A stretch of DNA of 64,000 nt from Bilabrum cf. latius (Eukaryota), in NCBI GenBank assembly GCA_965178125.1, contig OZ237746.1, positions 868,001-932,000 of the forward strand. Direction: 5' to 3'. A program made the position numbers and the translations under genes. Shown piece after piece: positions 34,862-64,000 of the stretch. Under the pieces are notes generated by a model. That model was given only the letters and a program-made list of their open reading frames with translations. It was not told where the DNA came from and did not search any database. The stretch's first letter is position 1; each line of letters starts with the position of its first letter.

Positions 34862-34964
34862 CGGCGGTACGAAATCTTGAAGTGCTGAAAAATAAGAGAA
34901 GAGCAGCTGGGCTGGGCGCGCCCTGAAATTTCTTATTTCGGTATCAACTCGTTACAATTTGAAT

Positions 34965-37159
34965 TAGGCGCCAGCACGGGCACCATCAAAGGATCGTGAC
35001 CGACACCGGACGATACGTTGAATGTGGACAAGTCGGGTACGCAGACGACTACGTGGCACTGACGTCGAACTGGAACGAAGCAGTGGCGGTCATGAAGCTA
35101 GTCAAGAGCCTGTTTGCACTTGCGGGCATGTAGCTGGGAATCAAGCCCCTGACAGCATCGGGCCAGGGAACCAAGACAGCGATCATGGCCTTTGGCTACG
35201 CTCGGGACTCAATTCCTGGGGACATGCCAGAGGGCGTCGCATGCAGAGCAGCGGACGCGGGAGAGACGGATGGGGAGTGGACCATCCCACTTGCCTCATC
35301 CTACCTGTACCTCGGTCTACTCATTTCGACCCAACCAGTACGGATCAGCCCAGATGAAGTAGCTGGGCTGACGCAGGCGAGAGACATCTGGGTAATTGAT
35401 ATGGCACCCCACGTACGCAGGAGGATTGCGATGGCGTACCGGGCGGCCAGGGACATCACACGAGCGGCGGTGAACGGCAACTGGGCGGTCTCCCTGCACG
35501 CCCAGCTGCTCCATGCAGGAGCAATCACGAGTGCATTCTACGGAGCAGAGGCAGCGGCATGTGCAACAGGATGGGACACCTTGTCAGGATTAGGATATGG
35601 TTCCCAAGTTTTCTACGGGATGGAACTGAACCTGGAAGTCCTCAAGATGCTGGACAAATTCCTGCTGGATACGCGCTGGATGATTGTCAGCGGATCGACA
35701 CAGGTAAGGCCCTTCACCATGGGCGGTCGATACGTGCCAAACCTTGCGATGGACACTGAGCTGCTGACGGCATCGGCAGCAGGGCGTGTTGCTATGGGCC
35801 TGCTGGACCTGATCGAGTGTCCCTCGAAGAAGGGCCTTGATGTTGCGGCCAGGTTCATCCACCAGGGCCGATTCCTGCAGGGACCACCAGTACAGACAGG
35901 CCCACTCGGGGCCGCGCTGGCACTGGGATTCAGGATCAAGATGGCAGGGTGGACCCACCGGATCGATGACGCGAAGGACTGGCTGGGATGCCAGGAGACT
36001 GCAAAAAAAGTCACAAAGTGGAGGAAATCCAAATCCGGAGCTGCTGACCGATCGTTCACAAGCCTGAGCCTGGGATGCTCGCACGATCCGGCACTGTCGG
36101 ATTGGGACCGGGAGAGAGCTGCGCTCGGAGTGGTCATGCTTAACCGGTACGCAACGAAGGGGCGGTATGCCTTCGGACCAGGAGCCATGCCAACAGCAGC
36201 GGTGGTGCAGGAATACGGCCACCAAGGAAGACGAATTCTGCGCATCCGAGCTGGACAATACCCGCAACAGGGCACGCCCAACCTTCAAGTGATGGGCACC
36301 GCGGTAGAGCAGATGGAGCGGGCCGAGCATGACCATCATGCCGGAACGAGACCGTGGCAACCCGATGATGCGGATCAGAATAGAGGGAGGTCCCCTGCCT
36401 CCCTCCGGAAAGCATGGGCGAAGACAGCTCTCGCTCAGGACCCTTGGGACGAGAAGCTGGAGCGCACCAGCAGGGCCAAGCCAATCGTCGAAGACGCACT
36501 CACTCGGATAGAGCGTACGATTGCGCGGTCATCGGAACGGACAGCTGTCAAGGAGCTGGCCAACCGAGTGGTGCAGGTGATCAGGAACCAGCTGCGCTAG
36601 CAGGAGTAGCTGACGTGCAGGCAGTGGATGCGAGGCGATGCGGCGGCTGCTCTTGCCGCCACGGCCACGCAAGAGCTGATAGCGGCAACCAATGCGAACG
36701 CTCGGCTACAGCGACGGATGTTTAAGCCCCACGGCTTGCTAAGGGACATAGAGAGGCAATGGGCCAAAGGCATGAGCGCGTGCATGCTAGCCTCTCTGAA
36801 GGATCGTGAGACGCAGAGACGGTCATGGAGGAGGAAATGGTGGGTCCCGGCAGGGGACCCTGATGTGGGACTGGACCGCGCTTTGTGCCGGGCACATGCT
36901 CCGCACCTGTATGCTTTCTCCCTGTGAAGGCATCAGGCTGAGGGCTTGTGGGGGACCACATTGATGGCGAATAAAGGGGACTCGGCGGTGTAGGCTGAGA
37001 TTGGGGGGCCTTTGGCCTGAAAGGGTCGGGGGTCTTGTAGTCCTTGTTTGAGGACTCCTCTGGATTCAGGTGATCACTCGAACTCCTTCGGGGGCAACGG
37101 TGCATCTGGGTGCTTGTGGAATCTTTACCCAACAATGTATTTCTGTATTTCTGTATTTC
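34965..37159 (+). mobile_element. 5'-truncated non-LTR retrotransposon (LINE) with (TGTATTTC)n 3' tail
   Basis: Frame +1 reads GQVGYADDYVAL (YADD at 35038), then KTAIMAF, YLYLG, RRRIAMA and FYGAEA. It stays open through TAGs to TGA 36927. Three TGTATTTC units lie at 37136-37159. No TSD was seen. Confidence 0.75.
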
Positions 37160-37189: not shown

Positions 37190-37220
37190 GAGTCTAGACT
37201 CTAGACTCTAGACTCTAGAG
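37190..37220. repeat. Short tandem repeat (TCTAGAC)n
   Basis: agagtctagactctagactctagactctagag. Confidence 0.8.
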
Positions 37221-37225
37221 TTGAG

Positions 37226-37437
37226 GACACGCATGCTGTGGCGGATGGCAGTGAGGGCACGGATGCTGTGGCGGATGGCAGTGAGGGCACGAATACTGTG
37301 GCGGATGGCAGTGAGGGCACGAATACTGTGGCAGATGGCAGTGAGGGCACGGATGCTGTGGTGGATGGTAGTGAGGGCACGGATGCTGTGGCAGATGGCA
37401 GTGAGGGTACGGATGCTGTGGCAGATGGCAGTGAGGA
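37226..37437. repeat. 30-bp minisatellite, about 7 copies
   Basis: Unit approximately CACGGATGCTGTGGCRGATGGCAGTGAGGG, repeated head to tail with few substitutions. Confidence 0.95.
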
Positions 37438-38250
37438 TCAGGATTGAAGCGACGGGGAGCATAGGTGAGCTGGAAGAGAGCCGGGCGCTGGCCGACTGGA
37501 GGCGGAGAGGAACAAGAGGGGGGCACCGGCACTGGCGACGATAGTGTGGTGTGAATAGGGAGAACACAACGGGAAGAAGGGGGCTCCAGGTGCCAGGCAC
37601 CAGGGAGACCCGAGTGGCACCTGCTGCGTGGCCAGCAGCGCGCAGAGGGCCAACAGGCTGGTGGATAGACGGAGCGCACGGCAGGTCGGCCAGGACCTGC
37701 ACGTGCAAGCTGAGTGGATAGAAGGTGGCGATCAGGGAGCAGCGCACACGGTCCCTAGGGCGGGGAACAGAAACAAGTAGCCATGTAGCGACGAGGCCAG
37801 CCGACGTGCGTTGGGAAAGTGGCATCCAAAGGATGTACATTCGTGGTATCAGAGGAATACCGCATTCATGGGGGCTGGTGAAGAACAGTCGTTCGGGGTG
37901 GAACTCCAGTGGGTCCGCGGGACCGGGGGCAGGAATTCTTCACTTTTCTTTTTGGTGGATGCCAACCAGTGGGGATTGCAGCAGCCGTGAAGATGAGCCA
38001 ACGGGTGTGGTTGAAGGAACAAATCTGATCTGTAGTCAAGGTTCAATGGCAGTGTCGGCATCCAGGGCACGCAGGCTGTGATCAGGTCCCGATTTGTTAT
38101 AATACGAAGGCATAATTAATCGGGGACGGGGTGAGCTGGCCCGCACCAGCCTCACCCAAGGGCTGCCCGCCTTGGCAGCCCCACACCATATTGATGCCAC
38201 TCGGACGGGAGGGGCGCCCGTCCGTTGTCCTCTCGCCATTCTGACTCATA

Positions 38251-39042
38251 TCATGCCTTAGAGCTTCGTGTGTGCCTGCGTGAATCCATGGATGCTAAGG
38301 CCACGCCCACCACCCTGGTCAAGTGGTCCTTGCTCAGGTAGTACACGGCAGTCTCCAACGACTTCCAGTCGGCTTGCTTGCAGAGGTCCTCCACTGACAT
38401 ACCACCCACGGCGGCGAATGTTGCGCCCGTTCGCCTGCACGAGTGCATGGTGAAGAAATCCGTGATCTCTCTCGTGCCCGTGCAGTACGCCTCCATCATC
38501 CTCCTGATGGCTGTCGTCGATCTTGTTTGCCTGCTTTTTCTTTGGCGTCCGGATTCGCAGCGGTGCAGTCGGGCCCATTGGGATGAGCACTGCCTACGGT
38601 GTGTCCCTTGGAGCTGTTGTCTAGATGATGGGGCACGCTCCTTCCGGCTGCCCAGGTCGTGCAGCATCTTGTCCCTGCCCACCACCATCGCGTTGGCCGT
38701 GGTCCGGATGTGCCGGGGGATGGAGCTGCAGTACGTCCCTTAGGTGTGTCTCGACACGTGGATAAGATCGACTTGAGCATGGAGCCCTTGAGTTTGCCGC
38801 GCTCTATCCGCAGCACCGTATCCGGATTCCGGATAGGCAAGGATCCGGTCAAGATTCTTGGTCACCCCCGCAGTCGTGGTGCCGTTTTGGGGCGCGGTCT
38901 ATCGGATCAACAGTCTACCTACTAGACGACGCGAAGCAGCCCAAGGGAAGTGCCTCGGGAGCACAAACCATGACCCGAACGACTCGGAATCAGTCGGGCC
39001 TGATCCCAAGTCTTACCGACACCTGGCCAGGGGTCCTGCCAT
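38251..39042 (-). pseudogene. Degenerate tyrosine recombinase (DIRS/Ngaro/Crypton-type), frameshifted and 5'-truncated
   Basis: Catalytic HSCRRTGAT...WKSLETAVYY segment in ORF 38251-38688; upstream fragments (LGIRP, TVLRIERGK) lie in other frames. Confidence 0.7.
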
Positions 39043-39310
39043 TTAAGGTCTCAAGTGCCAAAATCGGTAACTGGTACTTAACTGGTAACCAGTTAAGGTC
39101 TGAAAATGCGTGAAAATTTTACCAGTTACCGTTCAAATTTCAAAAAAATCTTCTAGGCTCCTGCGAGCTCACATTCACGCACAAAACAACCCCAAGGTGG
39201 CTATACTGGGCGTTCATGGCCAGACCATGCCTCCCACGGGCTACAAGACGTGTAAAGGCGGCTCAGCCCAGCTGTGCTAGCCCGTCAACGACTCGACGCA
39301 GTATGGGGTA
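39043..39310. mobile_element. Probable end of a TTAA-target DNA transposon (Kolobok-like), interrupted by the virophage
   Basis: Composition changes abruptly at TTAA|GGTCT (39043), followed by nested palindromes at 39065-39131. The matching end is not in the window. Confidence 0.35.
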
Positions 39311-39320
39311 AGTAGTATAT

Positions 39321-39371
39321 AAAGTGATATTGTGTACCTCAATCAAAGATTGAGCTACACAATATCACTTT
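39321..39371. other. Subterminal hairpin of the virophage TIR
   Basis: AAAGTGATATTGTGTAcCTCAATC-aaa-GATTGAGcTACACAATATCACTTT: 24-bp stem, one mismatch, 3-nt loop, starting 10 nt from the terminus. Confidence 0.9.
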
Positions 39372-39987
39372 TCCCCCAGCTAATACTGGACATTTCTTCA
39401 ATATTTCTTTAGGTTTTGGTTTTCCGTGAATATATCTAAAATTTTCAAATCAATTTTTAAGAATTCCCAAGAATTCCCGATGCCCCCTACAAATACTGGA
39501 CTTCTCCGTTCAATTTTTCATAGAATGTCATTTTCATGAATATATCTAACTTTTTCACACTTTCTCCCAGCATATGAGTTTTGAGGTAGCAGGTTCACGC
39601 TTTTAAAGGGTTTTACTGGACGATTTCCCACGAACCCGAAAAAGGGGTAGGGCTGAACGGCTCAAATCCACTCCAAAAATTCCTCAAAATCCATGGTCAT
39701 CGGCGTTGTATCGCAAAACCCTTAGTTGGATAAACAGGGGGTTTTCCAAACTTTTCCAACGATTTCCCCTACTTTTCCCAGATAAGGGCAAATCCGCTGG
39801 AAATCCTTAGTAGGGCTTACAAGGCCTTCCTGATATTTTCCAATCAATTTTTAAGGATTAACAAGGGTGTGTATTCGTTTTCTCGGTGGATTGGAAAAGT
39901 CCCCAAGATGCTCGGGCTTTGCCCTCCGCTCTTTTGATATCTTTTTCAAAGATTAAAATTGAGAGATTTGGTCGGTCGAATAAAGGA

Positions 39988-42900
39988 ATGATAAATATAT
40001 GTGATTCAAACTACACGCTACCCAGGCTAAGAAGTCACCCGAAGGCTACTTCGACCGGGAGGAAACATCTCACTGACCAGCTCAAGCCATGGGGGCTGCC
40101 AGCTGTGCTGCTTCTCCGTGGAGGTTCTGCACATCTGGAGCTCCCACCACAAGTGCTGGGGGATGTATAAGACCGGCATGGTCAGGGTCAAGGCCATCTA
40201 CCTCGTCCCCAGCGCCTCCAACCCCTTCAGCTGGTAGCACTCCTGCCGGGTTCGCAGCCTGCACTACCTACGCTTGTGCTGCCGCTTGCGCCGCCTCGGG
40301 GGCCACAGCTCCTGCTGGACCCGCTCCCTGCACCACTCTCGCTTCCCGTAGCCCTGACATGTTCCGCAACTTAAGGTTGAATTGAATCGTGCGGCATGCG
40401 CTCAGCATGGAAACTCCTTTGGCGATCACTCGCGCCCAGATCCTGACCTGGGCCTCCACCGACCTGCTGCGGGCCACCCCCAGCCTCTTGCGTCGGATTC
40501 GGGCCAACAGGCGTAGCAGTCCGCGTGCCCCGTTGCCCAAGCGTCCTGTCGCCAGGACAACAAAGTCCTGGAAAACGACCTGGTTCCTGTTCTTGATGGA
40601 CTTGACCCTCTCCGTGGCCGTTCCGGGTGCCATTCGCCCTCCCATCAGCCGATGGGGAGGGATGGGCTCATTGATCTCTCGCCACTTCCTCCCGGCTGCT
40701 CGTGCTCCCGCTGCTTCGTCCTGATGATCCGACCCCACTGGTTTACTGGGAAAGTGCCTGTCCCCATTATCCGTCCGCCTATTGATCTGAGACAGTCCGC
40801 ACTTGGCATGCGGGTCCGCAGTTGTCACGTCAACATAGATTGGCTTCGCACCCTCTCTCGGGATGATGATGTCCATCGAGTAGTTCCCTTCCTCATTGTA
40901 CACCCCTCTGATCTCCTTCAGTGCCTCTCGTCCGGTCGCCTCCTGTGCGATTTTCAGAAGTCTCCGCTCCACATGATAGTGCAACCCTGTCATCCTCCTC
41001 TTGTCGTCCTCCCTGATCAGCCGATCTCCGCAGTAGCTCAAGTGAGCACACTGGTGCAGGTAGCCTTCTGCTCGGGCGCACCCGGGCATCGGGCACCTCT
41101 CTGCCATCTCCGCCTCAAAGTCACATGTCCCGTTCTCCTTTTTCAGGCGCTACTGCACCTCCAGTGTAGGCCTACTGGATGGGTTGGGGACTCCCATGCG
41201 TCTACACATCTCAAACCTGAACCCATCGTTAGGGGGCACGTGTCCCTCCTGCACCGCCGATTTCGCTGTGTACGTCGTCCGTAAAATCTCGGCTGCATCT
41301 GCCGATCGGGTGTTGTGGATGATCGTCCTTATCTCCTGCATCACTTCCCGGGCCCTGTCCGCCCACTCTTGGTCATCTCCCATGAGGCGTTCCAAAAATC
41401 CACTGATCCGCCGATACGGGTGCACTGCGAATATCTGCGAATCCGCTCTGGCTGCTGCCGCTCCAAACAGACTCTGATGGTTCCCGCCGAACTTCGGGGG
41501 CTTCTCCCCTGCCTGACGTGCTCGCATCCCCGTGAAGGACTTGAGCCCCTTCGCCTCCTGCACCCAGGGTGCGGGGTTGTGAGCTGACCTCTTCCGAACC
41601 GACATCGGGTCCATTGGTTGAACGTTGATGAACACTCCCTCTGCCTTCTTGACCTTCACCACCTCAATGCGGTTGGGTGTCTCAAGCTCGTTATCCTTGC
41701 ACTTCACCCTCGCCTCCAATGCTGCTCTGACACTCGGTATCGCCCTCATAGCCTGGAACCGTACCGGATCCCAAACCTTCTTCATGAACTGCGGTAGGCT
41801 CGCGTGCGGGACAGGCTGGTGCTTGCACACGTACTTGTCCAGCGTGAGCGGATCCTCCTTCTCCGCCGTGATCAACCCCCGCAATTGGTCCGTTACCCAG
41901 CGGACCGCCCAGTCAGCCAGCACCAACGGGGACTCACTCTGCACTCCAAACGCGTCTGTTCTCCCATTTACGGGTCCTGGCACTGTGTCTACCACTGCGC
42001 TCAGCCCGTCCATGAAATCCAGGTTGTACTCCTTCGCCAGCCCAACCAAACCTGGCACCACGTCAAGGGCCATGCCAGCAAACCGTGCCACCATCGGGAG
42101 CTTGTTGGGGATAAGCGCCAACCCTGCTCCTCCCTGAGCTAGAGGTGCCTTGCGCTAATGTCTCGTGATCTCCGCGCGCAACATGTCTCCGTTCATCCCG
42201 TAGATCCGGGAGTCGAAGCGAGTGACGGTGTCCGCGAACACCACCTCGAGTCGTTCCAGCCTCTTCATCTTGCCTCCCTCCTGCATCCCTAGCAAACTGC
42301 CTGATCTCCACAGGTGTTCCCACATGGGCTGTATGCATGACCTGTAGATGGCGACCGCCACCGAGGGCTGCAGCTGAATCACCCTCGCGATAAGATCCGC
42401 CGTGTTCTCGATCCTTTTCTCCACAAAGGCCTCGGTGAAGCCTCTGGTGCGAGCCACAGGGATGCCAGCCACCACCATACCCTCTGTCTGCACCTTGCCG
42501 TCGAGTCTCCCTCCTGCTGCATCAATCTGCAGAGCCAACGTCGTCGCGGGGTCTGGTGAGTAGTACTCCGTCTTGGTGGGCTGCAGCTGAAAGTTGTCTT
42601 TCGCCACCTCCTTCGCGAGTGTTGCCATACACGCCGCCACTACTTCCTTCGTCCCCAGCAAGAAGGCGTCGTCTGCGATGCACAGTATCGTGCACAGCGG
42701 GTGCGCTGCCCTTGTTGCCTTCAGTGCCCTATTGAACCCCAGGCAGAACAGGGCGGGACTAAGGGGCGAGCCCTGCACCACACCCTGCCTGTTCTTCAAA
42801 ATCCCAATCTTGCCGTCCGAACCCACGATTCCAGCGATGCCAGCTGACCTGAACATCGCCGCTACGAGTGGCAGTGCCTCGGACTTGTTCTGCCGCAGAG

Positions 42901-43683
42901 CCGCCATGATCGTCTGCCTCTCAATCGACCCGAATGCCACCTTCATGTCTGCATGTGCCGCCACATGCTGCGGGTGAGCGCTAAGGTACACTCTAACATA
43001 AAACGCAATAGCATCAGCCCCGCATGGTAACCCTCCCCCAAACTGCTCCGGTTTGCACGTCTCCTCCACTGCCGGTACCACCCCCTTCAGTACATACTTC
43101 AGGAGCGGCAGTAGCATGTTCGAACCCATCCCTAGGGCACGAGGTTCCACTTTTCCCGGCTTCTCGATGCCAATCCCCCTACCCAGGATAAGGAAATCCC
43201 GAGCCAGCGGAGGTACCCAACCGGATCCAACGGTCCTGTACAGTGCCATCATCTGGTCCGGTGCCTTCTCCGTGAACTTCGCCACTGCTTCCCTTGAGAT
43301 CCCCAGAAGGTCCACCCCCCTGTTCTGTTTGAATTGCTGGGTGCTGGGGATCGATTTACCCTTGCTGTCCACCTGCATCATCCCTTGGATGTCCAGGGGC
43401 GAGTCCAGATCCCGCACCTCGTCATCTTGCACTGGGCCCATCTTGCCCGAGTGCTCATCAACCAGCTGACTCTGCAGCTCCGCCTGGAGGATCGCCATGG
43501 GCTTCGCCGCAACTCCATGTCCCCCCAGCTTGGATAAGGCAGACTTGTGCTTCCCTTTCCTGGCCATCTGCTCGGCACATCGAACATCCTCCTCCGAGCT
43601 GTCCGGTAGAATCACCCCTGGGTGAATTGCCTGGATGCGCTCGATTGCCCTGTCCTCATACACCCACGTGGCATCTCTGCCTT
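39988..43683 (-). mobile_element. 5'-truncated RLE-type non-LTR retrotransposon (CRE-like) inserted in the left TIR
   Basis: TSD GAATAAAGGA at 39978-39987 and 43684-43693. It is a GC-rich block, and removing it restores a TIR subrepeat. Confidence 0.9.
40082..43683 (-). CDS. Reverse transcriptase, Zn knuckle and restriction-like endonuclease polyprotein (5'-truncated)
   Basis: Motifs QFGGG, ADMKVAFGSIER, GVVQGSPLSPALF, IADD, APLAQGGAGL, CPMPGC..H...C and MDIII...YVDVT. Four ORFs are joined by TAG at 42155, 41150 and 40268; ends at TGA. Confidence 0.85.
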
Positions 43684-44309
43684 GAATAAAGGAGACTATG
43701 AAAGAATAAATAAATTTTCCTATTAAAAATATATGTTGTAATTCCTATGATGATACCATAAAAATTAAAAGGAAAATAAAAATTAATTAGTAATTGTATT
43801 TTAAGTCCCTTTGGAAAAGTCCCCCAAAAATTGAGAGATTTGACAGGTCAATTATAAGAGACTATGAAAGAATAAATAAAATTTTCCAATTAAAATATAT
43901 GTTGTAACTCCTATGATAACACCATAAAAATTAAAAGGAAAATAAAAAAACAAATTATAATTGTTTTCTAACTCCCCAATTAAAAACACAAAAATTGATT
44001 GAAAATTTTGGACAATATAGGATACAAAGAAATATTAAAATTAAGTTCCCAATTAAAATTAAATGTTGTAATTCCAATGATGATACCATAAAAATTAAAA
44101 AAGGAAATGAAAAATCAATTAGTAATTGTATTTTAAGTTCCTTTGGAAAAGTCCCCCAAAAATTGAGAGATTTGACAGGTCAATTATAAGAGACTTAGAA
44201 AGAATAAATAAAATTTTCCAATTAAAATTTAATGTTGTAATTCCCATGATGACACCATAAAAATCAATCTATTAGTTGATTGGTCGGTATCCAACTGTTA
44301 TGCGAAGCA

Positions 44310-47300
44310 TCATACCCCACCCATTTCACAAAACGAATTTATTCTGTAGTGTCCGTGCGCAAGAGTAGAATATCCATCATCCAATACATACCTTTTATCA
44401 TCGTGTGCGGACAAACCGGTTTTCGTGCTACAAATGGTATGAATACTATGGTCAAATGAGCGAATACTTGTTTGTTTTACTGAATGTTTTTCACCAAACA
44501 AGGCGTCCCTGTATTGGTCAAACCTCAAATCTCGGATATGCTATTTCTAAATTCCTTTCGCTGTTGCTTTTGCTTTTCCACCCATATTTAAGCAATACAT
44601 TTTACTGCGTAGTCCAATGAATTCTTCAATCTAATTATCACCCGTTTCGTCCTTGAAAGCTCCAACAACCTTTTTAAGTGTTAAATCCTTCATTTGAGTA
44701 CCGCTCAAAGAATATAACCTTGAATACGCACTAAAATCAAATAATCCCTCTTTTCCCGTAACGCCCTTGATATCCCCTTTCATTGCCTTCATATCCTAGT
44801 AAAAATCCTTAGTCGTGATGTGATAACATAGACTATCTGTGTCGGTAAATAACAATTTAGACTTTCCCCCATATTCCTTTTTCATCACGTTGTAGTGGAA
44901 ATCATACATAAGCGTCTTGGAAATGTCAAGAATACACATACCAATAATAATAGGTTTATTGAAGAGTATCATAGTCTTTCCCATTTCTATCTGACATAAT
45001 TTTTCACTAATAATAGTGGCATTCTTGAAGTTGGGTTTTCTCACTGCTTTTATCAATTGTGTTTCACTGGTAATCATACGGAAATTCCTATAGTTCTAAA
45101 CATCTTCCATAGTTTTCCCAAACACGGAATTATTCATCAGCTTGTAATAATCCTTTTCAAAATCACTTTTAGCGTGTAGACGCTTGTTGCTATTGAATTC
45201 AATATATTTCCTCAGGAAATCTTCCTATTGAAACTCTAATACACGGTGGATTTTAGTAATTTTAATTCCCAAAGACGCATACAACTATAGGTTTTTGATA
45301 TGACAAATATATTTCTTTCCCCCATACAAGTTAGGTGTAAGCTTTTTGAAATCGCTATGTTTCAAATTGTTCTTTTCCATCATTTTCCCAATGTAAGGGG
45401 AAGGTTTGAAACTCGCTTTTTCCGGACACAGGGGGTATTCATTATGAGCGTCGTGTATTTCCTATGGATAATCATAGTCAAACTCTACAATACAACCCTT
45501 TTCCCCTTCAACGTCATATTTTAATAATTCGTCCAAAGACTTTTCCACCCACTCAAATTTTCCAATTGGTAGTTTCTACATCATAGCCCAGCCATATAGA
45601 TTGTTCGCATCCAAATAGGAAATGTATGAAGTTTCCTAAGATTTATCATAACCGGAAATATAAGGGTTATTGGCTTTCGCATACCGATGGGTAATCATAG
45701 AAATCCCCCCTCGCATTCCCTACTAAACCATAGTCAACATATCTCGCTATTCTTTATTAAATAATTCAATCTCAACTCCAGTATATTTTAGCATACAATT
45801 CCACGATAAACCAGGTGATGTAGAAAATCGCAAGGCTTCCACCCCAAAATCCCGCCACACGTTCTCTCGGTGTTTCTCAAAGATGTCCGCCAACAATAAC
45901 ACATCTACTTTTAAGTAGAGTTTAACATAGTCGTCGAAGGTTTTACAATTGAATGTTTTCCACATGTCTTGAGCGTAATCATAGTTTTCCTATGTAATCC
46001 CAGAGTTGGATAATCCACTGTAAAAATCATCTTTAGAAGGCAACTTAGAAGTCCTTAGTTTTGTAATATTATCATACCATTCATAAGGAAAAACTCCTTT
46101 CTTCTTCACCATAAAGGACTTATCACCATACATCTTATTAATGATTTTGAAATCATTTGTATGAAGTGATTTACCCAACCTATCTAAAGAAGAAGACAAG
46201 TGCTAATATGTATCAATAAAACGCAAATTCTTAAAGGTTAGAGTAGTAAACTTCTCACTATTCTTAGCAATGACAGAAAGTGTATCGCTTGCTTTGGAAA
46301 GGTTGGAAATTGCTTTCGTAATAAACTGTCCATCATAGGCGGAAAAATTATGAAAGCAAACCACATATTCATTTTCCTTATCCTTTGTCAAGAATTCAAT
46401 AAATTGTTCCACGCAATCTTTTTCCTCAAATACCTTATATGATTTACGAAATGTATCATACATTCCAAGGTGGGTAGCAACGTGGACATTCTCAACACTT
46501 GTTTTATCACCTCTACGGGTTTTCTTGGGAACTAAACAGGCTTCAATATCCGCATACACTACGTAGGAATGTTTGGTTTCAATCTACTATCTTCTTTTTT
46601 TACCAATAGAACAATAACTGATTATACTATCCTCGTTTTCTGGAAGAACTTTTTTCGCATACGGAGCAACAGAATATTCATTACACCTATTTTTTTTGGA
46701 ATGTTCCAAAAATGATTTCTTCAATCTAAAACTCTATAGGCACTTCTAACACAAGTAGATGGTCTATTTATTCTTATAGAAGGCATTAATATTCTTAATT
46801 AAAGCAAAATGTTGTTTTCCATCTTCTTCCAACAATAGAAGGGAAATGATGTGCTTAACTTTTCCTCTGTTACAAGGTGGGGAAGCCCGATGAAGACACT
46901 TCTCTCCATCCACAAAGGTGTAAATATCCAAGGCAAAGTCGTTCAGCTTTTCCAGTGTTTGGTAATTCTCTTCTGTATCTTGGAATGGAAATTTGATATT
47001 TCCATAGAGAATAGGAAAAATTCCTGAGTTGTATTCACTATTTTCTAAGGTATAGCTCGTTGGTCTATCTCTGTTTTTCTTCGGAAGATTAAAGTATCCA
47101 CGCAAAGCGTATTTCATACAAAGCTCATCTTTATTTTTCACGTTAATAATACATTTTTTTACCGCTAATTCTTTGGGTGTTGGGATATAACTACCAACAG
47201 ACATAGGGTTATATCTAAATGGTTTTAAATAAGACCGTTTTACTTCAATAACGCGCCAACCTGAGCCCTCCGTGGTAAAGATTTCCAAAGCCTTCTAAAG

Positions 47301-48017
47301 CGTAGTAAATAATTCATTTAGTGATAGATTAATGTTGTTTTGAGTAGCAATTACATTTGTAGAGTGTAATCTAAATTCCTATCGTTTCTTGTCTGTAATC
47401 CTTTCCATAAGAGCAATCACGTCCAATTTTACTTTCCAAGACTTGGATTTCTCAGTGAGTTCCTCCAAAGTTTTCTTAAGGTCTGGTTTGATGACAAACA
47501 AATAACCTACAAGGTCTGGTAGTGGTTCTGTCGTATCAATCACGTATTCATTTGTTTCTTTACCAAATTTCGTAGCTTTCCTCATATCCACCTCAATATC
47601 TTCCTTGATATTGCTTGTATCAACGTTGGAAAGCGTATCTGTTTGTTCCAGTTCATAATAAGTCTTTTCCAAGATTTCTGTTTTGCTTCTAAGTGATGGG
47701 ATTTCATTTCCAAGCGCTCTGTATCGTTTCAAAGCCGCCACTAAATCTTTTCTGGGAAGTCTCTTCTACAGAGTATTAATCTGCTCATACCACTCATTTA
47801 CGTTCTTCTTGGATTTCAAAGACACTGGGATAAAATATCCTTCCTATTTCATCTTAGAAAGTGCTAATTGTTTTTCCTTGAAGGTGGGCTCTGGGCTTTC
47901 CGCCGTTTCCTCCTTTTCCTCAACGAGTTCGTTTTCCAATTCTTTCTCGATAAGTTGTTGTTCAATCTTTTCCTGAAGGCTTTTCAACTATTCTGGCGTC
48001 AATTTTGAGATGTCCAT
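44310..48017 (-). CDS. polB: Protein-primed family B DNA polymerase (pPolB), 1,235 aa
   Basis: Motifs YADIE, FHNFSAYD, KKKGVFPYEW, DANNLYGWAM, KLMNNSVFGKT, FTDTDSL and DDKRY. Seven track ORFs lie in one frame interrupted only by TAG; ends at TGA. Confidence 0.95.
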
Positions 48018-48076
48018 TTTGATGTTATACTATAGTGTGAGATAATACTTAAGCCACGGATGACGTGAGCCAGCCA

Positions 48077-48084
48077 TCAATTTT
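48077..48084 (-). promoter_or_regulatory. AAAATTGA mimivirus-type early promoter motif upstream of pPolB
   Basis: Exact octamer on the sense strand about 60 nt before the ATG; the same motif occurs at 51308-51315 (GIY-YIG) and 61842-61849. Confidence 0.6.
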
Positions 48085-48133
48085 TCATATCAAAAGGGGT
48101 TTAAAACAAACATTAATTATATAATAATAAACG

Positions 48134-50501: not shown

Positions 50502-51260
50502 TCAATATTTCTCCACACATTCCCTGAACTTTTCCATAGTCTTAAGAAGTTCATCAACAGACCGTTTGTAGTTTTCCATAGATTTCAAAGTGTCTGTTGG
50601 AGTTTCCTTTTGTTTCTATTCAATCAAATATTTGTGTCTAATCGTTCTTTCGTGTCTGCGTATATCTCCTCTACGGACATCACAACCACACTCACATTTT
50701 ACTCTTTGCTTTGCCCAAGTCTAGTGTTTATCTTTGTTCAAATAGTAGTATTTTTGCTACATATTTCTTATTGTAACTACATTATTCAATCTATACATTC
50801 TATTGTCTTCACGAAGTTTTTTACGGTTCTACATTCTGTAGTTGTGTTGGTACTCCCGAATTTTATCGATGTTTTCTAATTGGTATTGCTTAGTTCTCTC
50901 AAGAATTTTTCCGCGGTTCTGTTTATAGTGTTGCTTTCTTTCTTTAAGTACGAATTCTCGGTTCTATTGGTAATGCTCTCTCCTTGTTCTTCCTGCGACA
51001 ATTTTATTCACGCAATCACTTTTCTGTATGAATTCACCCTCTCTGCGATTTAATGCCTCTTTCGATTTACAAGGGTGGTTCTCAATTAAAATAATTCGTG
51101 CGTCTCCACATTTAAGAACTCTTTGCGAAGTACAGTTGTCTGTCATTAAACGATGTTTGGACATTCTCTTACTCAAAGATTGAGTAGTAGAACCAATATA
51201 CGTTAATCCTGTAGAAGGAGACCAAATTTTATATATTTTCCCCTTTGAATAATCAGGCAT
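50502..51260 (-). CDS. GIY-YIG endonuclease with C-terminal CECG...H...H zinc finger (252 aa)
   Basis: KIYKI...YIGSTTQSLSKRMSKH; extends past the TAG at 50964 to TGA 50502. Confidence 0.85.
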
Positions 51261-51321
51261 TCGCTTTTCTACGCTTTTCTACTCTTTTCTATTCCCTTAC
51301 ACTTAAATCAATTTTTCATAC

Positions 51322-51798
51322 TCAAGCTTGGAGCATAGCGAGTAGTTGGTTACGAGAAAGAGATTTACCACCTGTTAAGCCCGAGCCTAACTTGGCACCT
51401 GTTAAGCCCTTGCCTTTCTTGGTAGTTTTTCGGGGTTTCCTTTGGCGTCCCATACCAGCCATTTCACCCACCATTTTAGCGGTGTCAAATACCTACTTAC
51501 CATCCTTTAATACTTTTTTGAGATTGCCTTTCTTTACCCAATCAGCGGTTTTGTGTGCGAACTTTTTTAAGGCGTGTCTAATCTTTTTCCCAAGACCGCG
51601 ACCATGTAATCCTGATAATTGACTTTCATATACAACGGGTAGTTTAGAGGCGGAAAGAACATCTGCCCTTGAGATGACACCCTGCTAATACTCAATCTTA
51701 GAACCATCAATCACATTCATTACTCCTTCGTACAATCCCACAACCACACACTACACATTTTGGTAATCTACAACATCATTATTCTTCACTCGTAGGGT
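51322..51798 (-). CDS. MCP: Major capsid protein, 3' part (basic, Gly-rich C-terminal tail)
   Basis: TLRVKN...YEGVM...GVISRADVLSA...KGKGLTGAKLGSGLTGG; joins the 5' part in frame. Confidence 0.88.
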
Positions 51799-54700
51799 TA
51801 ACATAAATAGTAATATTAGAACGAGTCGGGGCGGGATCTGGGATCGGGGGCTTGCGGGCCGGGGCCCGCTCCGGCGCGGGGCGGAGAACTTAGTTTAGTT
51901 CATTACTATCATACAGAATGTGCGCGCGCGCCGCCATCGCAATCGCGCGGGGCGCGAGCGGCGGCGGGAAGTGCCTGCCACCCCGAGTTGTCCGTTCGGC
52001 TACCACGTTTCGAAAAGTATCTCGACTAAAACGCAAGGGATCGCTTATTCCATGCTTATTGCTACGCTCCGATAGCAGTTAAATGAAACGCTGCCGGTGG
52101 AATTTCCATGCACCCTCGAAACAAAAAGCCTTAGGGATTCGCGCGCCCGGATAAACTCCTCCCTGCCGCGCCCTGATCCGATCCCTTTCGCGCTCCACTC
52201 GATCCGATTCATTCCACCCCTCGAATGCGCCGGTAAGCGACAACATTGTTTGATTTGCATTATAACATCATGATTTCTGCTAGCCGATCGGCGGCCCATG
52301 TCGTGCCCGGCTCTGGAGGAGCACTGAGGTGGCGCGCAAACGCTGTCATCTCCAATCGTGAGCCCAATCCCCGCAGCATCCATGCAACGAGCAACGAAAT
52401 ATTACTTGATTGAATACCAAACATGCAATTCCATGGCGTGATAGGCGTCAGAGCATTGGTGAGTCGAGTGAGCGGACCAACGGCAGCTTCCAACGCCACG
52501 AGCCTCGAGGCACAACGCGTCCACGCTCCAGTCAGTTCCCATCGCAGATGCAAGAGCGCTTTAAACAAAATCAAGTAAGACATAGATTCGATTGCCTGCG
52601 TGTGCTGCTGCTTTGATCGGGGAGGGAGGGCTCCAAGCGGCCGGCTCGCCCTCCCTCCGCCTTGCCGCTGCTGAATCCGACCGCGGGAGCAATCCAAGCT
52701 TCAGGAAGACGACGACGCGCCGGCACAATGGACTCTATGAAGCTATTCATGGCAAATTGCATCGCCGCCGCCGACCGCCGGCAGGCGTTCTGTACCTCGT
52801 GAGCTCATTCAATGCTGACATCTGCGAACTAGCGCCTCCAGCACCCCATCAGCAGCACCGCGTAGCGCCACGGCGGCAGCCAGTGGCATCCTACGGCTCT
52901 CATGCATCTCCTGACTCTGCATTGCCTCCATCGTGGCGGGCACGCCCATTGTGCCTGACGCTCTCCTGCTTGCGACCATCGGCATCGCTGGCGCCTGGCT
53001 GCGACCCCCCGGCACGCGACGGCAGCTCTCCACTCCCGCTACCCGGCCCGCCACCCACTCCCATCTACAAACCCATGGGGGGCGGGCTTAGGTCCTTTCC
53101 CTCTTGTTAACATAAACAGTAATATTAGAACGAGTCGGGGCGGGATCCGGGATCAGGGGCTTGCGGGCCGGGGCCCGCGCCCGCACCGAGCGGAGAACTT
53201 AGTTTAGTTCTATGAGATAACATTCAATGGGCGCGCGCGCCGCCATCGCAATCGCGCGGGGCGCGAGCGGCGGCGGGAAGTGCCTGCCACCCCGAGTTGT
53301 CCGTTCGGCTACCGCGTTTCGGAAAGTATCTCGACTAAAACGCAAGGGATCGCTTATCCCTGACCAATTAGTATGATCATCAATAAAGGAATAAGGTAGC
53401 CCTTGGTGCCTGTTGGATTCTCCCACGAAACAAAAAGCCTTAGGGATTCGCGCGCCCGGATAAACTCCTCCCTGCCGCGCACTGATCCGATCCCTCTCGC
53501 GCTCCACTCGATCCGATTCATTCCACCCCTCGAATGCGCCGGTAAGCCAATAGATTGTTGTATTTGCATTATGACATCATGATTTCTGCTGGCCGATCGG
53601 CTGCCCATGCCGTGCCCGGCTCTGGAGAAGCACTGAGGTGGCGCGCAAATGCTGTCACCTCCAACCGCAAGCTCAATCCCCGCAGCATCCATGCCACGAG
53701 CAACGAAATGTTACTTGATTGAATATCAATCACGCAATTCCACGGTGAGGTAGGCGTGATAGCATCGATGAGTCGAGTGAGCGGACCAACAGCAGCTTCC
53801 AACGCCACGAGCCTCGAGGCACAACGCGTCCGCGCTCCAGTCAGCTCCTATCGCAGATGCAACAGCGCTTTAAAACAAAATCAAGTAAGGCATAGATTCG
53901 ATTGCCCGCGTGCGCTGCTGCTTTGATTGGGGAGGGAGGGCTCCAAGCGGCCGGCTCGCCCTCCCTCCGCCCCGCCGCTGCTGAATCCGACCGCGGGAGC
54001 GATCTAGGCTTCAGGGAGACGACGACGCGCCGGCACAATGGACTCTATGGAGCTATTCATGGCAAATTGCATCGCCGCCGCCGACCCCCGGCAGGCACTC
54101 TGTACCTCGTGAGCTCATATCGCGCTGACATCTGCGAGCTAGCGCCCTCCAGCGCCCCGGCTGCAGCACCGCGAAGCACCACGGCGGCAGCCAGTTGCAT
54201 CTCACGGCTCACCTGCATCTCCTGACTCTGCGTTGCCTCCATCGTGGCGGGCACGCCCATTGTGCCTGACGCTCCCCTGCTTGCGACCATCATCATCGCT
54301 GGCGGCAGGCTGCGACCCCCCGGCACGCGACGGCAGCTCGCCACTCCCGCTACCCGGCCCGCCACCCACTCCCATCTCCAAACCCATGGGGGGCGGGCTT
54401 AGGTCCTTTCCCTCTTGTTAACATAAACAATAATATTAGAACGAGTCGGGGCGGGATCCGGGATCGGGGGCTTGCGGGCCGGGGCCCGCTCCCGCACCGA
54501 GCGGAGAACTTAGTTGAATGCTGTAAGATTACATTCAATGGGCGGGCGCGCCGCTGCCGCAATCGCGCGGGGAGCTTGCGGCGGCGGGAAGTGCCTGCCA
54601 CCCCGAGTTGTCCGTTCGGCTACCGCGTTTCGGCTCTTATCTCTGCGATCGGGACATATCTCGCTAATCCGGCGGGTAACTTTGTGCTACCATGCCAGCG

Positions 54701-55729
54701 AATCCGAACGCAACGGTATGCTCGGCGATTCTCACTCGAAACAAAAAGCCTTAGGGATTCGCGCGCCCGGATAAACTCCTCCCTGCCGCGCCCTGATCCG
54801 ATCCCCCTCGCGCTCCACTCGATCCGATTCATTGCACCTCTCGAATGCGCCGGTAAGCCAATAGATTGTTGTATTTGCATTATAACATCATGATTTCTGC
54901 TAGCCGATCGGCGGCCCATGTCGTGCCCGGCTCTGGAGGAGCACTGAGGTGGCGCGCAAACGCTGTCACCTCCAATCGTGAGCTCATTCCCCGCAGCATC
55001 GATGCCACGAGCAACGAAATCTTACTTGATTGAATATCAAACACGCAATTCCATGGCGGGGTAGCCGTGCTAGCATCGGTGAGTCGAGTGAGCGGACCAA
55101 CAGCAGCTTCCAACGCCACGAGCCTCGAGGCACAACGCGTCCGCGCTCCAGTCAGCTCCCATCGCAGATGCAACAGCGCTTTAAAACAAAATCAAGTAAG
55201 AAATAGATTCGATTGCCTGCGTGCGCTGCTGCTTTGATTGGGGAGGGAGGGCTCCAAGCGGCCGGCTCGCCCTCCCTCCGCCCTGCCACTGCTGAAATCG
55301 ACCGCGGGAGCGATCTAGGCTTCAGGGAGACGACGACGCGCCGGGACAATGGACTCTATGAAGCTAATCATGGCAAATTGCATCGCCGCCGCCGACCGCC
55401 GGCAGGCACTCTGTACCTCGTGAGCTCATATAATGCTGACATCTGCGAGCTACCGCCCTCCAGCACCCCGACAGCAGCACCTCGAAGCACCACGGCGGCA
55501 GCCAGTGGCATCCTACGGCTCACGTTCATTTCCCGACTCTGCGATGCCTCCATCGTGGCGGGCACGCCCATTGTGCCTGACGCTCTCCTGCTTGCGACCA
55601 TCGGCATCGCTGGCGCCTGGCTGCGACCCCCGGGCACACGACGGCAGCTCTCCACTCCCGCTACCCGGCCCGCCACCCACTCCCATCTCCAGACCCATGG
55701 GGGGCGGGCTTAGGTCCTTTCCCTCTTGT
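51799..55729. mobile_element. Head-to-tail trimer of a GC-rich, apparently non-coding ~1.31-kb element inserted in the MCP gene (units 51799-53107, 53108-54418, 54419-55729)
   Basis: Each unit runs TAACATAAA...GGTCCTTTCCCTCTTGT; lengths are 1309, 1311 and 1311. A GT is shared at the junctions, and exact removal restores the MCP frame. Confidence 0.9.
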
Positions 55730-57052
55730 GATAGACAATTGGTTAGAACCGTTTGAACCATTTGTCTAATCTACATCTAGGCTCAAATCCTTGGCGGGGT
55801 CGATGGAGAGAATTGCGCCTGATAGCACCCTTTGTTGATATCCAGGCTATTCAGGCTATATTCCATTATCGAAGCGTCGCATAGCCCATTCCGCGTATTG
55901 CTATTCAAGTCCGTTGCTTCTGGATAAGTCCCATAGCTATTGAGGTGATGCGTCGGCGAGTAATCCAGATTGGTTATTCATTTCGATACTTATTCCCTCA
56001 ATTCCAAGGAATGTGTTTCCCTAATCTACTGAGACGCTGGTAGGTGAGCGTCGGGCAAACACAAATAGACGAGATGGAACTGAATTGCTAAGTTTAATAT
56101 TGTTGTTCGTAAGAGTTGCTGTTGTTCCTGCGCTGATTGTTGCACCATAGCTTTGAGTATATGAAGTCATTTCAAAAATATCATAGGAGACCTGTTTTGG
56201 AAGGACAAACCCTGTTTTAGGGGTAATCTATTCAAGGTATAAATAGGGGTTCTTGACATCTACCGACTAAACGGAAGCAGTTAAGTCCTATTGTGGAATA
56301 CGAGACCACACGGTTCTACTCAGTTGTGACCAATTGATATCTAAGGAAAGAGTTTCTAAACCGAAAATGGCTGGTTGTTCCTATTTACTTTCGTAATGGA
56401 AAGGTGGGCAAAGAACCGCCTCAGTACATTCAAAGACAAGAACACGATTTTGCGTTTGACCTGCGGGCACTGGAGTGTTATCCATTTGAACCAAGTTATA
56501 AAATCCACTTCCTCTTGCGGGTTGGTCCTAAAGCACGTCTTCATACGAAGCAAGAGCGTTATTTGTAGCCTAACTCATCATCGCGTATGAAGGCACATTG
56601 TCGCGTCTATACACACTATCAAGGCAATTCACACGATGAACATCATCATCTAAGCAATGGGACACTACGTCCATTATTTCCGCGTTATTCTAAGTAAAGC
56701 GAATGTTATTGATACCAACTGTCTGTGTTGCAATGGAGCGATTAAGTGGATATGAGCGTGGAGCATCGTAATCTGGTGTAAATGGTACGAGAGCACCTGC
56801 GGTTTGATTATTCACGGAAAAGGTAATGGAAAAACGGCAAGACACGTATGCGCGGCGGCATAAACCTACACCTGAAGGCATACTAATATTCCAATTCACA
56901 CCTGAATTATAATTACCGGCTGAACCAGATGGAGCGTATCTGCGAAACGTTCGGTTCTCATAACCTTCTTGAACTTCATACGGCTTCGGTTGTACATCTA
57001 ATGTAGCGGGTGATACTTTGACTGGCTGAAGGGCAAAGGTATTCAATGACAT
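55730..57052 (-). CDS. MCP: Virophage major capsid protein, 5' part (441 codons; 599 aa when joined)
   Basis: The N-terminus (YEVQEG...NWNISMPS...LCRRAYV...ITF...DAPRSYPL...INN) follows the Sputnik-type MCP pattern; many in-frame TAGs. Confidence 0.88.
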
Positions 57053-62715: not shown

Positions 62716-63639
62716 ATGGAAAAGTATTTTGACGAAGTTCATACTCCTAGAAACCCTGAGCGGTCATATAGAAAAGTTTAGGCCTATGGAAATGCGGATA
62801 TTTACTCTGCAGATTTAATTGACCTCTCAAGATTTGCTGAGTATAATGATAATTATAAATGGATACTCTCATTAATTGATATTATTTCAAGAAAAGGGAT
62901 TGCTATACCACTCAAGAATAAACTAGCGACTACTGTGTTAAAAGGCTACAAATAGATTGTGGAAGGCTTGGGAAAACAACCTAATAAACTGTGGACTGAC
63001 TAGGGAAAAGAGTTCTATAATAAAACGTTTAAGAAATATCTTTCCAAACACAATACTCACCTGTACTCAACTTTTTCCGGAAAAAAGGCGGTTGTTGTGG
63101 AACGCTTCAATAGAACTATTTTAACCAAATTATTTAAGTCGATGGCTAAGAATAAGACACGACGATGGATTGATTTATTAACTGATGTTATTGTTTCCTA
63201 TAATAATACTGAACATAGCACCATTAAGATGACACCTAACGAATTGTGGGAAAAGGAAAAAGATTTCCAACCAAGTATTAAACGTCACTAGAAAAGCCCT
63301 ATTAAATTCAAGAAGGGCGATATCGTACGAGTAATGTACCCTAAGAAAACATTTGATAAAGGGTATTTACCTAATTGGAGTTGGGACGTCTTCAAAATTA
63401 ATAAGGTATTCTTGACAAATCCAACAACCTATACTTTGACGAATGGGGAAAAGAAGAAATTAGAGGGGAAATACTATGATTGGCAATTAAAGAAAACCGT
63501 GTAGCCTTTTGGGGTCTATAACATCGAAAGAGTTGTAGATACTGAAATGAAAGATGGAATTGAGTATAGTTTTGTGAAATGGGTGGGGTATGATGCTTCG
63601 CATAACAGTTGGATACCGACCAATCAACTAATAGATTGA
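62716..63639 (+). CDS. Polinton-type rve (DDE) integrase with C-terminal chromodomain, 307 aa
   Basis: SADLID, IDIISR, WTD*GKEFYN, VERFNRT, YNNTEHSTIKMTP, KGYLPNWS and VKWVGYDASHNSWIP. Confidence 0.95.
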
Positions 63640-63708
63640 TTTTTATGGTGTCATCATGGGAATTACAACATTAAATTTTAATTGGAAAATTTTATTTATT
63701 CTTTCTAA
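63569..63708. repeat. Inner part of the right TIR
   Basis: Reverse complement of 44195-44334; the match stops abruptly at 63709. Confidence 0.9.
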
Positions 63709-64000
63709 TAATGCTAACGCCGAATGGGGTTCGGGGTTGATGTGGCGATGCGTTCGAGACTCGAACACAGGCTCCGGTCTACCAACGCGAGGTTGCAACC
63801 GCCAGTGCGACCAGCAGCTTGCGAGGCATTCCCTCGTCTCCTTCCTTAGGGAAGGGGGCGGGGCAGCGCGGCAGTGGCCGTTCCGGCTCATGCCGTTGTT
63901 TTGTTTAGTATTTATGTTCGGTTTGGTGCTCACACGGGTAGTGCTTAACGCCGTGTCAACTATCGCGCGTGTCCATGTGGGTCCGTTCGGCCTACATCGT
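63709..64000. mobile_element. Unidentified GC-richer insertion interrupting the right TIR (runs off the window)
   Basis: TIR identity is lost and GC rises at 63709. Confidence 0.55.

Follow-up and report, generated by a model that had tools for sequence, protein, structure and literature searches.

What kind of DNA keeps some 1.2 kb nearly constant from copy to copy and, within it, a single segment of fixed length in which the sequence has diverged to saturation? The question is raised by a tandem array in a 64,000-nucleotide stretch of the genome of Bilabrum cf. latius (GenBank assembly GCA_965178125.1, contig OZ237746.1, positions 868,001 to 932,000 of the forward strand), here termed the 64-kb window and numbered from its first letter. 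The array is a 3931-nt insertion composed of three head-to-tail units on the plus strand (unit 1, 51797–53105, 1309 nt; unit 2, 53106–54416, 1311 nt; unit 3, 54417–55727, 1311 nt), and it interrupts the major capsid gene of an endogenous virophage. A mobile element that combines 1.2 kb of near-constant sequence with one 103-nt segment saturated at fixed length is unusual. On balance, we favour the view that the units are copies of a non-coding, non-autonomous element, which moves by site-specific recombination at a GT core in the manner of tyrosine-recombinase elements, and that the variable segment represents old alleles shuffled among copies.

The units and their variable segment

Outside the variable segment, the three pairs of units differ at 99, 96 and 77 of 1212 alignment columns (6–8%), and the MAFFT alignment contains 1-nt indels between units; units 1 and 2 are approximately 90% identical with the segment counted in. 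Each unit begins with TAACATAAA... and ends with ...CCCTCTTGT. Inside the segment, mismatches rise to 39, 55 and 60 of 103 positions (38–58%), a contrast with Fisher p values from 7e-15 to 1e-37. The segment occupies 52014–52116 in unit 1 (v1, 46% GC), 53323–53425 in unit 2 (v2, 43% GC) and 54634–54736 in unit 3 (v3, 53% GC), and in each unit exactly 103 nt run from ...CGTTTCG[A/G] to CGAAACAAAAAGCCTTAGGG. The constant left anchor (GGCT...GTTTCGG) is found at 53307–53322 in unit 2, with the same sequence at 51998–52013 and 54618–54633. The constant right block, which begins with CGAAACAAAAAGCC, is found at 53426–53525 in unit 2 and again at 52117–52216 and 54737–54836; it belongs to the most strongly conserved parts of the unit, with 2, 3 and 3 mismatches per 100 columns compared with 58–76 in the 895 columns beyond it. 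The right edge of the segment is abrupt: mismatch stands at 54–62% in columns 260–327 and drops to 2–3% over the next 100. These three full copies are the whole sample for comparison of the segment. A BLAST search of unit 2 against the entire 64-kb window gave three matches, every one of them in the array and with no further copy, and two conserved unit motifs had no match in IMG/VR. One match of a unit motif to a JGI metagenome (L001) was discarded as a chance 20-mer in unrelated surrounding sequence.

The three segments are homologous in register. Their identities (64/103 for v1/v2, 48/103 for v1/v3 and 43/103 for v2/v3) were matched by only 7, 0 and 0 of 5000 dinucleotide shuffles and lie above every circular shift. 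MAFFT places no gap within the 103 nt, and a gapped pairwise aligner scores two of the three pairs slightly higher with four compensating gap columns, so that small compensated indels may have occurred. Substitutions involve all four bases, with transition:transversion counts of 12:27, 16:39 and 12:48 inside the segment and 58:39, 47:47 and 41:36 outside it; the transversion-rich pattern of the segment is that expected at saturation, whereas the flanks show the normal transition-rich pattern. The segments have no reverse-complement relation to one another (26–44 of 103 positions match), which rules out inversion of a segment between inverted anchors.

The segment of unit 3 is unlike the other two over its entire length, while v1 and v2 are identical for their first 35 nt and match at 29 of the remaining 68 positions. 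Units 1 and 2 are near-identical over columns 132–259 (3/128 mismatches), and this shared block ends within the segment, after which 39 of 68 columns differ. The end of the block can be read as a breakpoint of recombination or template switching. Logan contigs of four public runs (X1, X2, X3 and X7, the last of which carries another organism label and is probably DNA) were mapped on positions 50800–56800. A 435-nt contig of X1 (53231–53665) covers v2 with a single difference, and a contig of X7 from a different locus spans 53106–53480 (375 nt), and thus all of v2, with 10 differences, before it passes into foreign flank. As both contigs are near-identical to v2, a given allele of the segment is as stable as its flanks, and the recurrence of a unit-2-type segment under another organism label fits stable old alleles, not ongoing mutation. 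Contig depth is present over v3 in X3, and v1 has no cover among the contigs listed. In short, the segments look like old, saturated alleles that are held to one length in conserved sequence, and that have been reshuffled between copies, not mutated in place.

The units also contain a second variable patch, which is smaller and AT-rich (about 34 nt; 53196–53229 in unit 2, 51887–51920 and 54507–54540 in the others, alignment columns 98–131), with 10, 12 and 6 mismatches in 34 columns across the unit pairs. A strong GC hairpin, GGGGAGGGAGGGC...GCCCTCCCTCC, occurs once per unit (52614–52666, 53924–53976 and 55235–55287) and matches Rfam only as weak noise from microRNA models. The units are without coding signal. 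GC content hardly varies among the three codon positions (0.56–0.61) in all six frames of the unit, compared with 0.60–0.81 at third positions (GC3) of host genes, and the ratio of nonsynonymous to synonymous differences (pN/pS) is 0.6–2.0 across the unit frames tested. An open reading frame (ORF) of 112–133 codons on the minus strand (52045–52401, 53354–53710 and 54620–55021) ends within the segment, and the TAA that terminates it in units 1 and 2 stands one codon ahead of the point at which v1 and v2 diverge, which we take as chance. This ORF was rejected as a gene: it has no GC3 excess and a pN/pS of 0.7–1.35, like the other frames, and in unit 3 its start is lost and its 'stop' is TAG, a sense codon in this genome. 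A search of the ORF against a set of 5.8 billion proteins returned six candidates, none of them significant.

The anchors on either side of the segment are able to pair in all three units (GGCU with AGCC, GUUUCG with CGAAAC), and because these pairs never vary they offer no evidence of covariation. Consensus folds of both strands have nothing in common except the invariant closing pairs, and folds of the single segments differ between units (z-scores 0.0 to -3.2). No unit-specific pairing was found between a segment and the smaller patch or the rest of its own unit. At gathering score, Rfam has no match in the 64-kb window; a permissive search (E ≤ 10) gave ten matches, all with E > 3 and far below the cutoffs, and a tRNA search of the window found none. 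A retrozyme or other ribozyme-bearing repeat is ruled out, as there is no hammerhead or other Rfam motif at gathering score.

Much of this had been described in a sequence-only reading of the stretch, and its description largely holds. Three near-identical units with sharply bounded divergence, exactly 103 nt between the anchors of each, a unit 3 that differs over the full length, identity above random, changes among all four bases and a non-coding unit were all recovered, as was its count of 33/72 identical positions over the last 72 nt of units 1 and 2. The shared start of units 1 and 2 is real, although it measures 35 nt and not the 31 nt given. The claim that the segment lacks indels stands in the gap-free MAFFT alignment and is qualified by the slight preference of the gapped aligner. 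An exchangeable cassette, as proposed, agrees with a shared block that stops inside the segment. A check by contigs for a consensus artefact, which that reading had called for, backs v2 and the junction of units 2 and 3 and leaves v1 without listed cover, and the search for covariation or RNA structure that it had also suggested yielded the invariant anchor pairs around interiors that fold differently.

Insertion site and ends of the units

The array lies within an AT-rich block of the 64-kb window (43.7–63.7 kb), which follows a GC-rich part (1–43.7 kb, 50–72% GC). When TAG is read as a sense codon, seven of the 13 open ORFs of the block match Pfam at E ≤ 0.01; the matches include protein-primed DNA polymerase B, a GIY-YIG nuclease, a Sputnik-type major capsid protein, a penton protein, an AAA-type ATPase and an rve integrase with chromodomain. 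Terminal inverted repeats (TIRs) of 140 nt lie at 44195–44334 and 63569–63708 and are 100% complementary. Judged by its Pfam matches and TIRs, the block is an endogenous mavirus-like virophage (43687–63708, 33–40% GC outside the array), which looks intact save for its split capsid gene. The predicted major capsid gene is on the minus strand; its N-terminal 441 codons lie at 55728–57052 (with TAG read as sense, Sputnik_MCP_1st, E 2e-22, and MCP_V20_C, E 1.5e-26, the latter covering profile positions 3–146 of 171) and its C-terminal remainder at 51322–51796. By arithmetic from the frames, the two parts return to one frame once 3931 nt (1 mod 3) are removed, and the array splits the gene near its C-terminus. 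A search of IMG/VR with the capsid protein found no related locus or close relative.

The virophage also exists without the array, as seen from contigs in which position 51796 is joined to 55728. This joint skips exactly 3931 nt, with two letters (GT) that fit either side. Three of the four runs have it, each in a single contig, with a shorter arm of 104 nt in X1 and of 27 nt in both X2 and X3; X7 does not. The empty-site contig differs from the flanks here at 1/133 and 5/104 positions. The filled state is represented by a 248-nt contig of X1 (54233–54480) that spans the junction of units 2 and 3 with four differences.

The same unit ends are found at other loci. Eight of the 23 loose contig ends listed fall at unit boundaries (51799, 53106, 53108, 54418, 54419 and 55729), and among those listed the unit ends abut six different foreign flanks, in two of three organism labels (B and C). 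Four of these flanks exceed 50% GC, one has 48% and one is AT-rich; since most are above 50% GC, insertion is not restricted to virophage DNA. All five of the right junctions listed retain ...CTCTTGT, and two of the three left junctions read GT-TAACA.... The target at the insertion in the capsid gene is GG|GT|GA, in which GT (55728–55729) is common to target and element, each unit beginning with GT (51797–51798, 53106–53107 and 54417–54418); these two letters are either a crossover core or a 2-bp duplication. The junction between units, CTCTT-GT-TAACA, contains an 8-bp palindrome, TGTTAACA. The array was inserted with precise boundaries, the ends of the units are fixed and recur at several loci, and there is no duplication beyond GT. 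The mobility attributed to the units by the sequence-only reading is confirmed by the empty site and by these shared ends, and a satellite or tandem duplication in place is ruled out on the same grounds.

Contigs of X7 also contain a more diverged member of the family. In one of them, unit positions 40–534, which include both variable regions, are replaced by 27 letters, and others show length differences of 66 and 100 nt; the family therefore includes deletion variants.

The age of the virophage limits when the units can have diverged. The virophage is young, to judge from its perfect TIRs, its open genes and an empty-site copy that is almost the same in sequence. The units are nevertheless 6–8% apart, and so must have diverged elsewhere: what arrived was either three distinct members of the family or a single heterogeneous trimer.

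Mode of movement and rival explanations

Fixed ends, the lack of TIRs, the lack of duplication, a core of 2–3 nt and a palindromic junction together lead us to read the units as derived from a tyrosine-recombinase family, and we infer that they are non-autonomous members or repeat-only derivatives of such a family. Integration without target duplication and crossover in a short common sequence, here GT, are the pattern of tyrosine-recombinase elements. Each 1.31-kb unit would be one copy of the element, three of which form an array in a virophage that was recently integrated and whose capsid gene they interrupt. Movement would proceed through a circular or multimeric intermediate, in which the ends are closed to a junction ...CTCTT-GT-TAACA... 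bearing the palindrome, and this junction would recombine at a GT of the target site. The enzyme would be provided in trans, most likely the tyrosine recombinase of a Crypton or of a DIRS/Ngaro-type element. Arrays could arise by integration of a multimer, or by entry of new copies at the end of a resident one, and the three units would already have been different on arrival. The variable segment would be the polymorphic module of the family, shuffled among copies by recombination or template switching. It may serve as a sub-family recognition module, as a spacer of which only the length matters, or as something programmable. As to its role, our weak guess is that the DNA or the transcript of the element bears a cis-acting signal, of which the segment is the variable part, closed off by a stem; within that guess, either the length of the segment might outweigh its sequence, or the segment might mark sub-families with different trans-acting partners.

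Several observations weigh against this proposal. No recombinase or reverse transcriptase (RT) is tied to the units. The only recombinase candidate in the 64-kb window is an ORF on the minus strand at 38251–38739 with an H-x-x-R ... Y pattern (a Phage_integrase match below the cutoff of 27.1, at 19 bits and E 0.001), which has no homologue among longer proteins and no PDB match; it has no sequence in common with the units, and may be a decayed tyrosine recombinase gene. The neighbouring RT element, which has no BLAST match to the units and no PDB relative, was rejected as their partner. The target has only GT, and not GTT, in common with the element; one left junction in X7 (...ATAC|TAACA) is without GT; and a 2-bp target duplication is indistinguishable from a 2-bp crossover. 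The proposal does not account for the constant length of the segment at approximately 55% divergence, and three full copies are too few to give the number of its alleles. With folds that differ and shared pairs that are invariant, a role as RNA is without positive support.

Comparison with known elements gives partial likenesses. Some short interspersed elements (SINEs) have exchangeable modules derived from their partners, and long terminal repeats (LTRs) have a variable U3 part. These resemble the units in having a conserved body, a module specific to sub-families and mosaics formed through template switching, but their modules vary in length and lie at the end of the RNA, whereas the segment here is of fixed length. 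For the tyrosine-recombinase groups, the comparison draws on excerpts of the published descriptions. In DIRS-order elements, a 3-bp junction (NTT, and GTT in several families) recombines with an identical genomic sequence and no target duplication arises (PMC3266345); the unit junction CTCTT-GTT-AACA is of this NTT/GTT type and the insertion likewise lacks a duplication, but the units lack the inverted terminal repeats, the internal complementary region and the ORFs of DIRS1-like elements, and their target shares GT only. Cryptons lack TIRs, recombine through short direct repeats at their termini, are proposed to pass through a circular intermediate and have given rise to non-autonomous derivatives (PMC3212892). 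The units resemble them in each of these respects, and differ in that 2 (once 3) nt are common here compared with 4–6 bp in Crypton terminal repeats, and in that no autonomous partner was found; tandem arrays and an internal cassette are not mentioned in the excerpts of the Crypton paper.

A different origin, which we consider unlikely but worth weighing, is that the units are the terminal 'AB' repeats left, one by one or in tandem, by a full-length Ngaro-like retrotransposon whose coding part was lost through recombination, with the variable segment and the smaller patch as a fast-evolving, U3-like part with a regulatory role. This overlaps with the proposal of a non-autonomous element and differs in treating the units as remnants, not as an element that moves itself. 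In Cafeteria burkhardae, according to the excerpts available, GC-rich Ngaro elements interrupt approximately one quarter of the endogenous virophages, solo AB repeats occur across the genomes and in five named endogenous virophages (PMC8547959), and AB-repeat reads were found in reactivated virophages (PMC10945749). In both cases, mobile DNA of host type, GC-rich like the flagellate genome, lies within an endogenous virophage that is AT-rich, copies consisting of repeats only occur, and integration is expected without target duplication, the insertion signature with its GT(T) core being the same. The array could be derived from Ngaro-type repeats. Yet a remnant of the form A1-B1-A2-B2 gives two units and not three different ones, the 64-kb window has no ORF-bearing copy with these repeats, and differences of 6–8% in a young virophage are better explained by independent arrivals than by decay in place. 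The split direct repeats of Ngaro, A1-[gag, RT/RNase H, YR]-B1A2B2 (where YR is the tyrosine recombinase), are not seen here; the array instead has three complete, different 1.31-kb tandem units with neither an internal coding region nor RT or recombinase ORFs. A further difference is that the host here reads TAG as sense, which the Cafeteria excerpts do not mention. Nor do these excerpts (PMC8547959, PMC10945749) mention a hypervariable segment of fixed length, the comparison being one of descriptions, and our literature searches, which are no proof of absence, found no paper on such a segment in Ngaro or DIRS repeats. Far less probable is a programmable specificity module, in which the segment would be a guide- or barcode-like RNA or DNA, with constant flanks as scaffold and active diversification. 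We give equally little credence to a broader version, in which the segment is an exchangeable cassette that guides a trans-acting recombinase or interferes with virophages and giant viruses, and arrays are a eukaryotic store of cassettes. The fixed-length variable segment between conserved blocks able to pair, and the position of the array inside a virophage, speak for such a module, as does a dinucleotide core common to donor and target. The last of these is a feature of IS110/IS1111 bridge-RNA elements, which also lack TIRs and form a circular junction, but which are prokaryotic and carry their own recombinase; here there is no guide–target or guide–donor match. No segment matches the empty-site flanks or the element junction over 8 nt or more on either strand; one 7-mer is common to the segments and the flanks and two 6-mers to the segments and the junction, estimated as at or below chance. 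In the rest of the 64-kb window, the best BLAST match of a segment is 13 nt long (E 0.07), which is not above chance. The homology of the segments in register is unlike that of independently acquired spacers, the unit-2-type segment is stable across organism labels, the units contain no enzyme gene, and searches for known RNA families and for unit-specific pairing with the remainder of the unit found neither. An array of clustered regularly interspaced short palindromic repeats (CRISPR) is ruled out by 'repeats' of approximately 1.2 kb (compared with about 21–48 nt) and by 'spacers' that are homologous in register. A diversity-generating retroelement (DGR) is likewise ruled out: there is no adenine bias (nine of the 33 columns conserved among all three segments are A), no invariant template copy in the 64-kb window and no adjacent RT, the nearest RT ORF lying 8 kb from the units and sharing no sequence with them.

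The sequence-only reading had itself set aside CRISPR spacers and the adenine-only DGR pattern, correctly, and is partly supported overall: its mobile, non-coding unit with a cassette stands, while its hypermutation, guide and antiviral suggestions found no support. Localised hypermutation does not agree with segments that are saturated and transversion-rich, or with the recurrence in X7 of a unit-2-type segment (no more than 10 differences over 375 nt); a guide finds no partner in the searches above; and an antiviral function, suggested by the location, does not follow from a family in which four of the six listed foreign flanks exceed 50% GC and an array that here splits a capsid gene. It is less probable again that the units are a non-autonomous rolling-circle element, Helitron-like or of another HUH type. 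Rolling-circle elements insert without target duplication, often in tandem arrays, and the units share these properties and the lack of TIRs; approximately 20 nt inside the unit start there is, in addition, an 8/9 match to the nick-site motif TAATATTAC. By our estimate, however, chance alone would produce some 0.3 such matches in 1.3 kb read on both strands, the boundaries of the units lie away from this one, and the sequence concerned, TAATATTAG, was judged a chance resemblance to a CRESS-like nick motif. Helitrons are marked by 5'-TC...CTRR-3' ends, a 3' hairpin and insertion between A and T. They are ruled out here by ends of GTTAACA.../TAACA... and ...CTCTTGT and by the target GG|GT|GA, and rolling-circle replication would yield identical units, not units 6–8% apart. 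Least credible is the view that the array is a simple satellite, or a tandem duplication of local origin, that has a mutational hot spot, or else that it is an assembly artefact. Head-to-tail units of one length would fit this, as would the lack of v1 among the listed contigs; against it stand the exact empty site in three of four runs, the same unit ends at other loci, the contigs that confirm v2 and the junction of units 2 and 3, and units too different to have been duplicated within a virophage with perfect TIRs.

The locus adds to what is known of nested parasitism. This arrangement of host, virophage and transposon has so far been described mainly for Cafeteria, and the locus extends it to a flagellate whose genetic code is altered and to a purely non-coding element. 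The knockout of a capsid gene also bears on the reactivation of virophages as a defence against giant viruses.

Genetic code and genomic neighbourhood

TAG is a sense codon both in the GC-rich host part of the 64-kb window and in the AT-rich virophage, with examples at 1–7854 (plus strand), 24626–34951 (minus strand) and 44310–48089 (minus strand). Under the standard code the AT-rich block resembles a wreck; with TAG as sense it has dense open genes. The in-frame stops of the capsid and polymerase frames are all TAG (13 and 12, respectively), with no TAA or TGA. Host ORFs with TAG read through extend over 2617, 3441, 1337 and 1124 codons (8, 26, 6 and 6 internal TAG), and with this reading every ORF has TGA or TAA as its stop. 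Of the TAG codons of the virophage polymerase, 11 stand in columns that are well conserved among 20 homologues, and five of these are glutamine columns (20/20, 19/20, 17/20, 13/20 and 12/20). At nine conserved glutamine columns, the polymerase has TAG five times and never CAA or CAG, which makes glutamine the likely meaning of TAG; host and virophage probably both read it so. A literature search found no report of endogenous virophages in hosts that have recoded TAG, and one metagenome survey of virophages (PMC6905037) is said to contain the term 'stop codon reassignment'.

The ends of the virophage are unequal. The left end consists of four tandem copies of a 166-nt repeat (43687–44334), while the right end has less than one copy and breaks into GC-rich sequence at 63709; being short and broken off, the right arm appears to be truncated or interrupted. 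The 166-nt repeats contain AAAAATTGA, which we take to be a giant-virus early-promoter motif. The outermost repeat at the left end adjoins the GC-rich RT element mentioned above (40020–43686, minus strand), which has an RT ORF of 1205 codons with three internal TAG, a match to RVT_1 only and no relative in PDB. By eye, the C-terminal part of this ORF has a CCHC knuckle and a PD...D/E.K-like motif, presumably as in long interspersed elements (LINEs) with a restriction-like endonuclease. Beyond the RT element, an AT-rich patch at 39.1–40.0 kb (39100–40020) has sequence like the terminal repeats of the virophage, such as GGGGACTTTTCCAA and AAAAATTGATTG, and the RT element therefore seems to lie inside an extended arm of the virophage.

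Further to the left, an ORF of 654 codons on the plus strand (34963–36927) starts with a GYADD motif, which is typical of reverse transcriptases, and has no Pfam match; it may be a truncated second retroelement. Between it and the recombinase-like ORF lies a GC-rich tandem repeat with seven copies of 30 nt (37192–37466). At the left edge of the 64-kb window, a host gene on the plus strand (1–7854) has immunoglobulin domains of HYDIN/CFAP65 type (E 6e-12), from which the host is taken to be a flagellated eukaryote, and the uninterrupted ORFs of 2617 and 3441 codons suggest that its genes have few introns.

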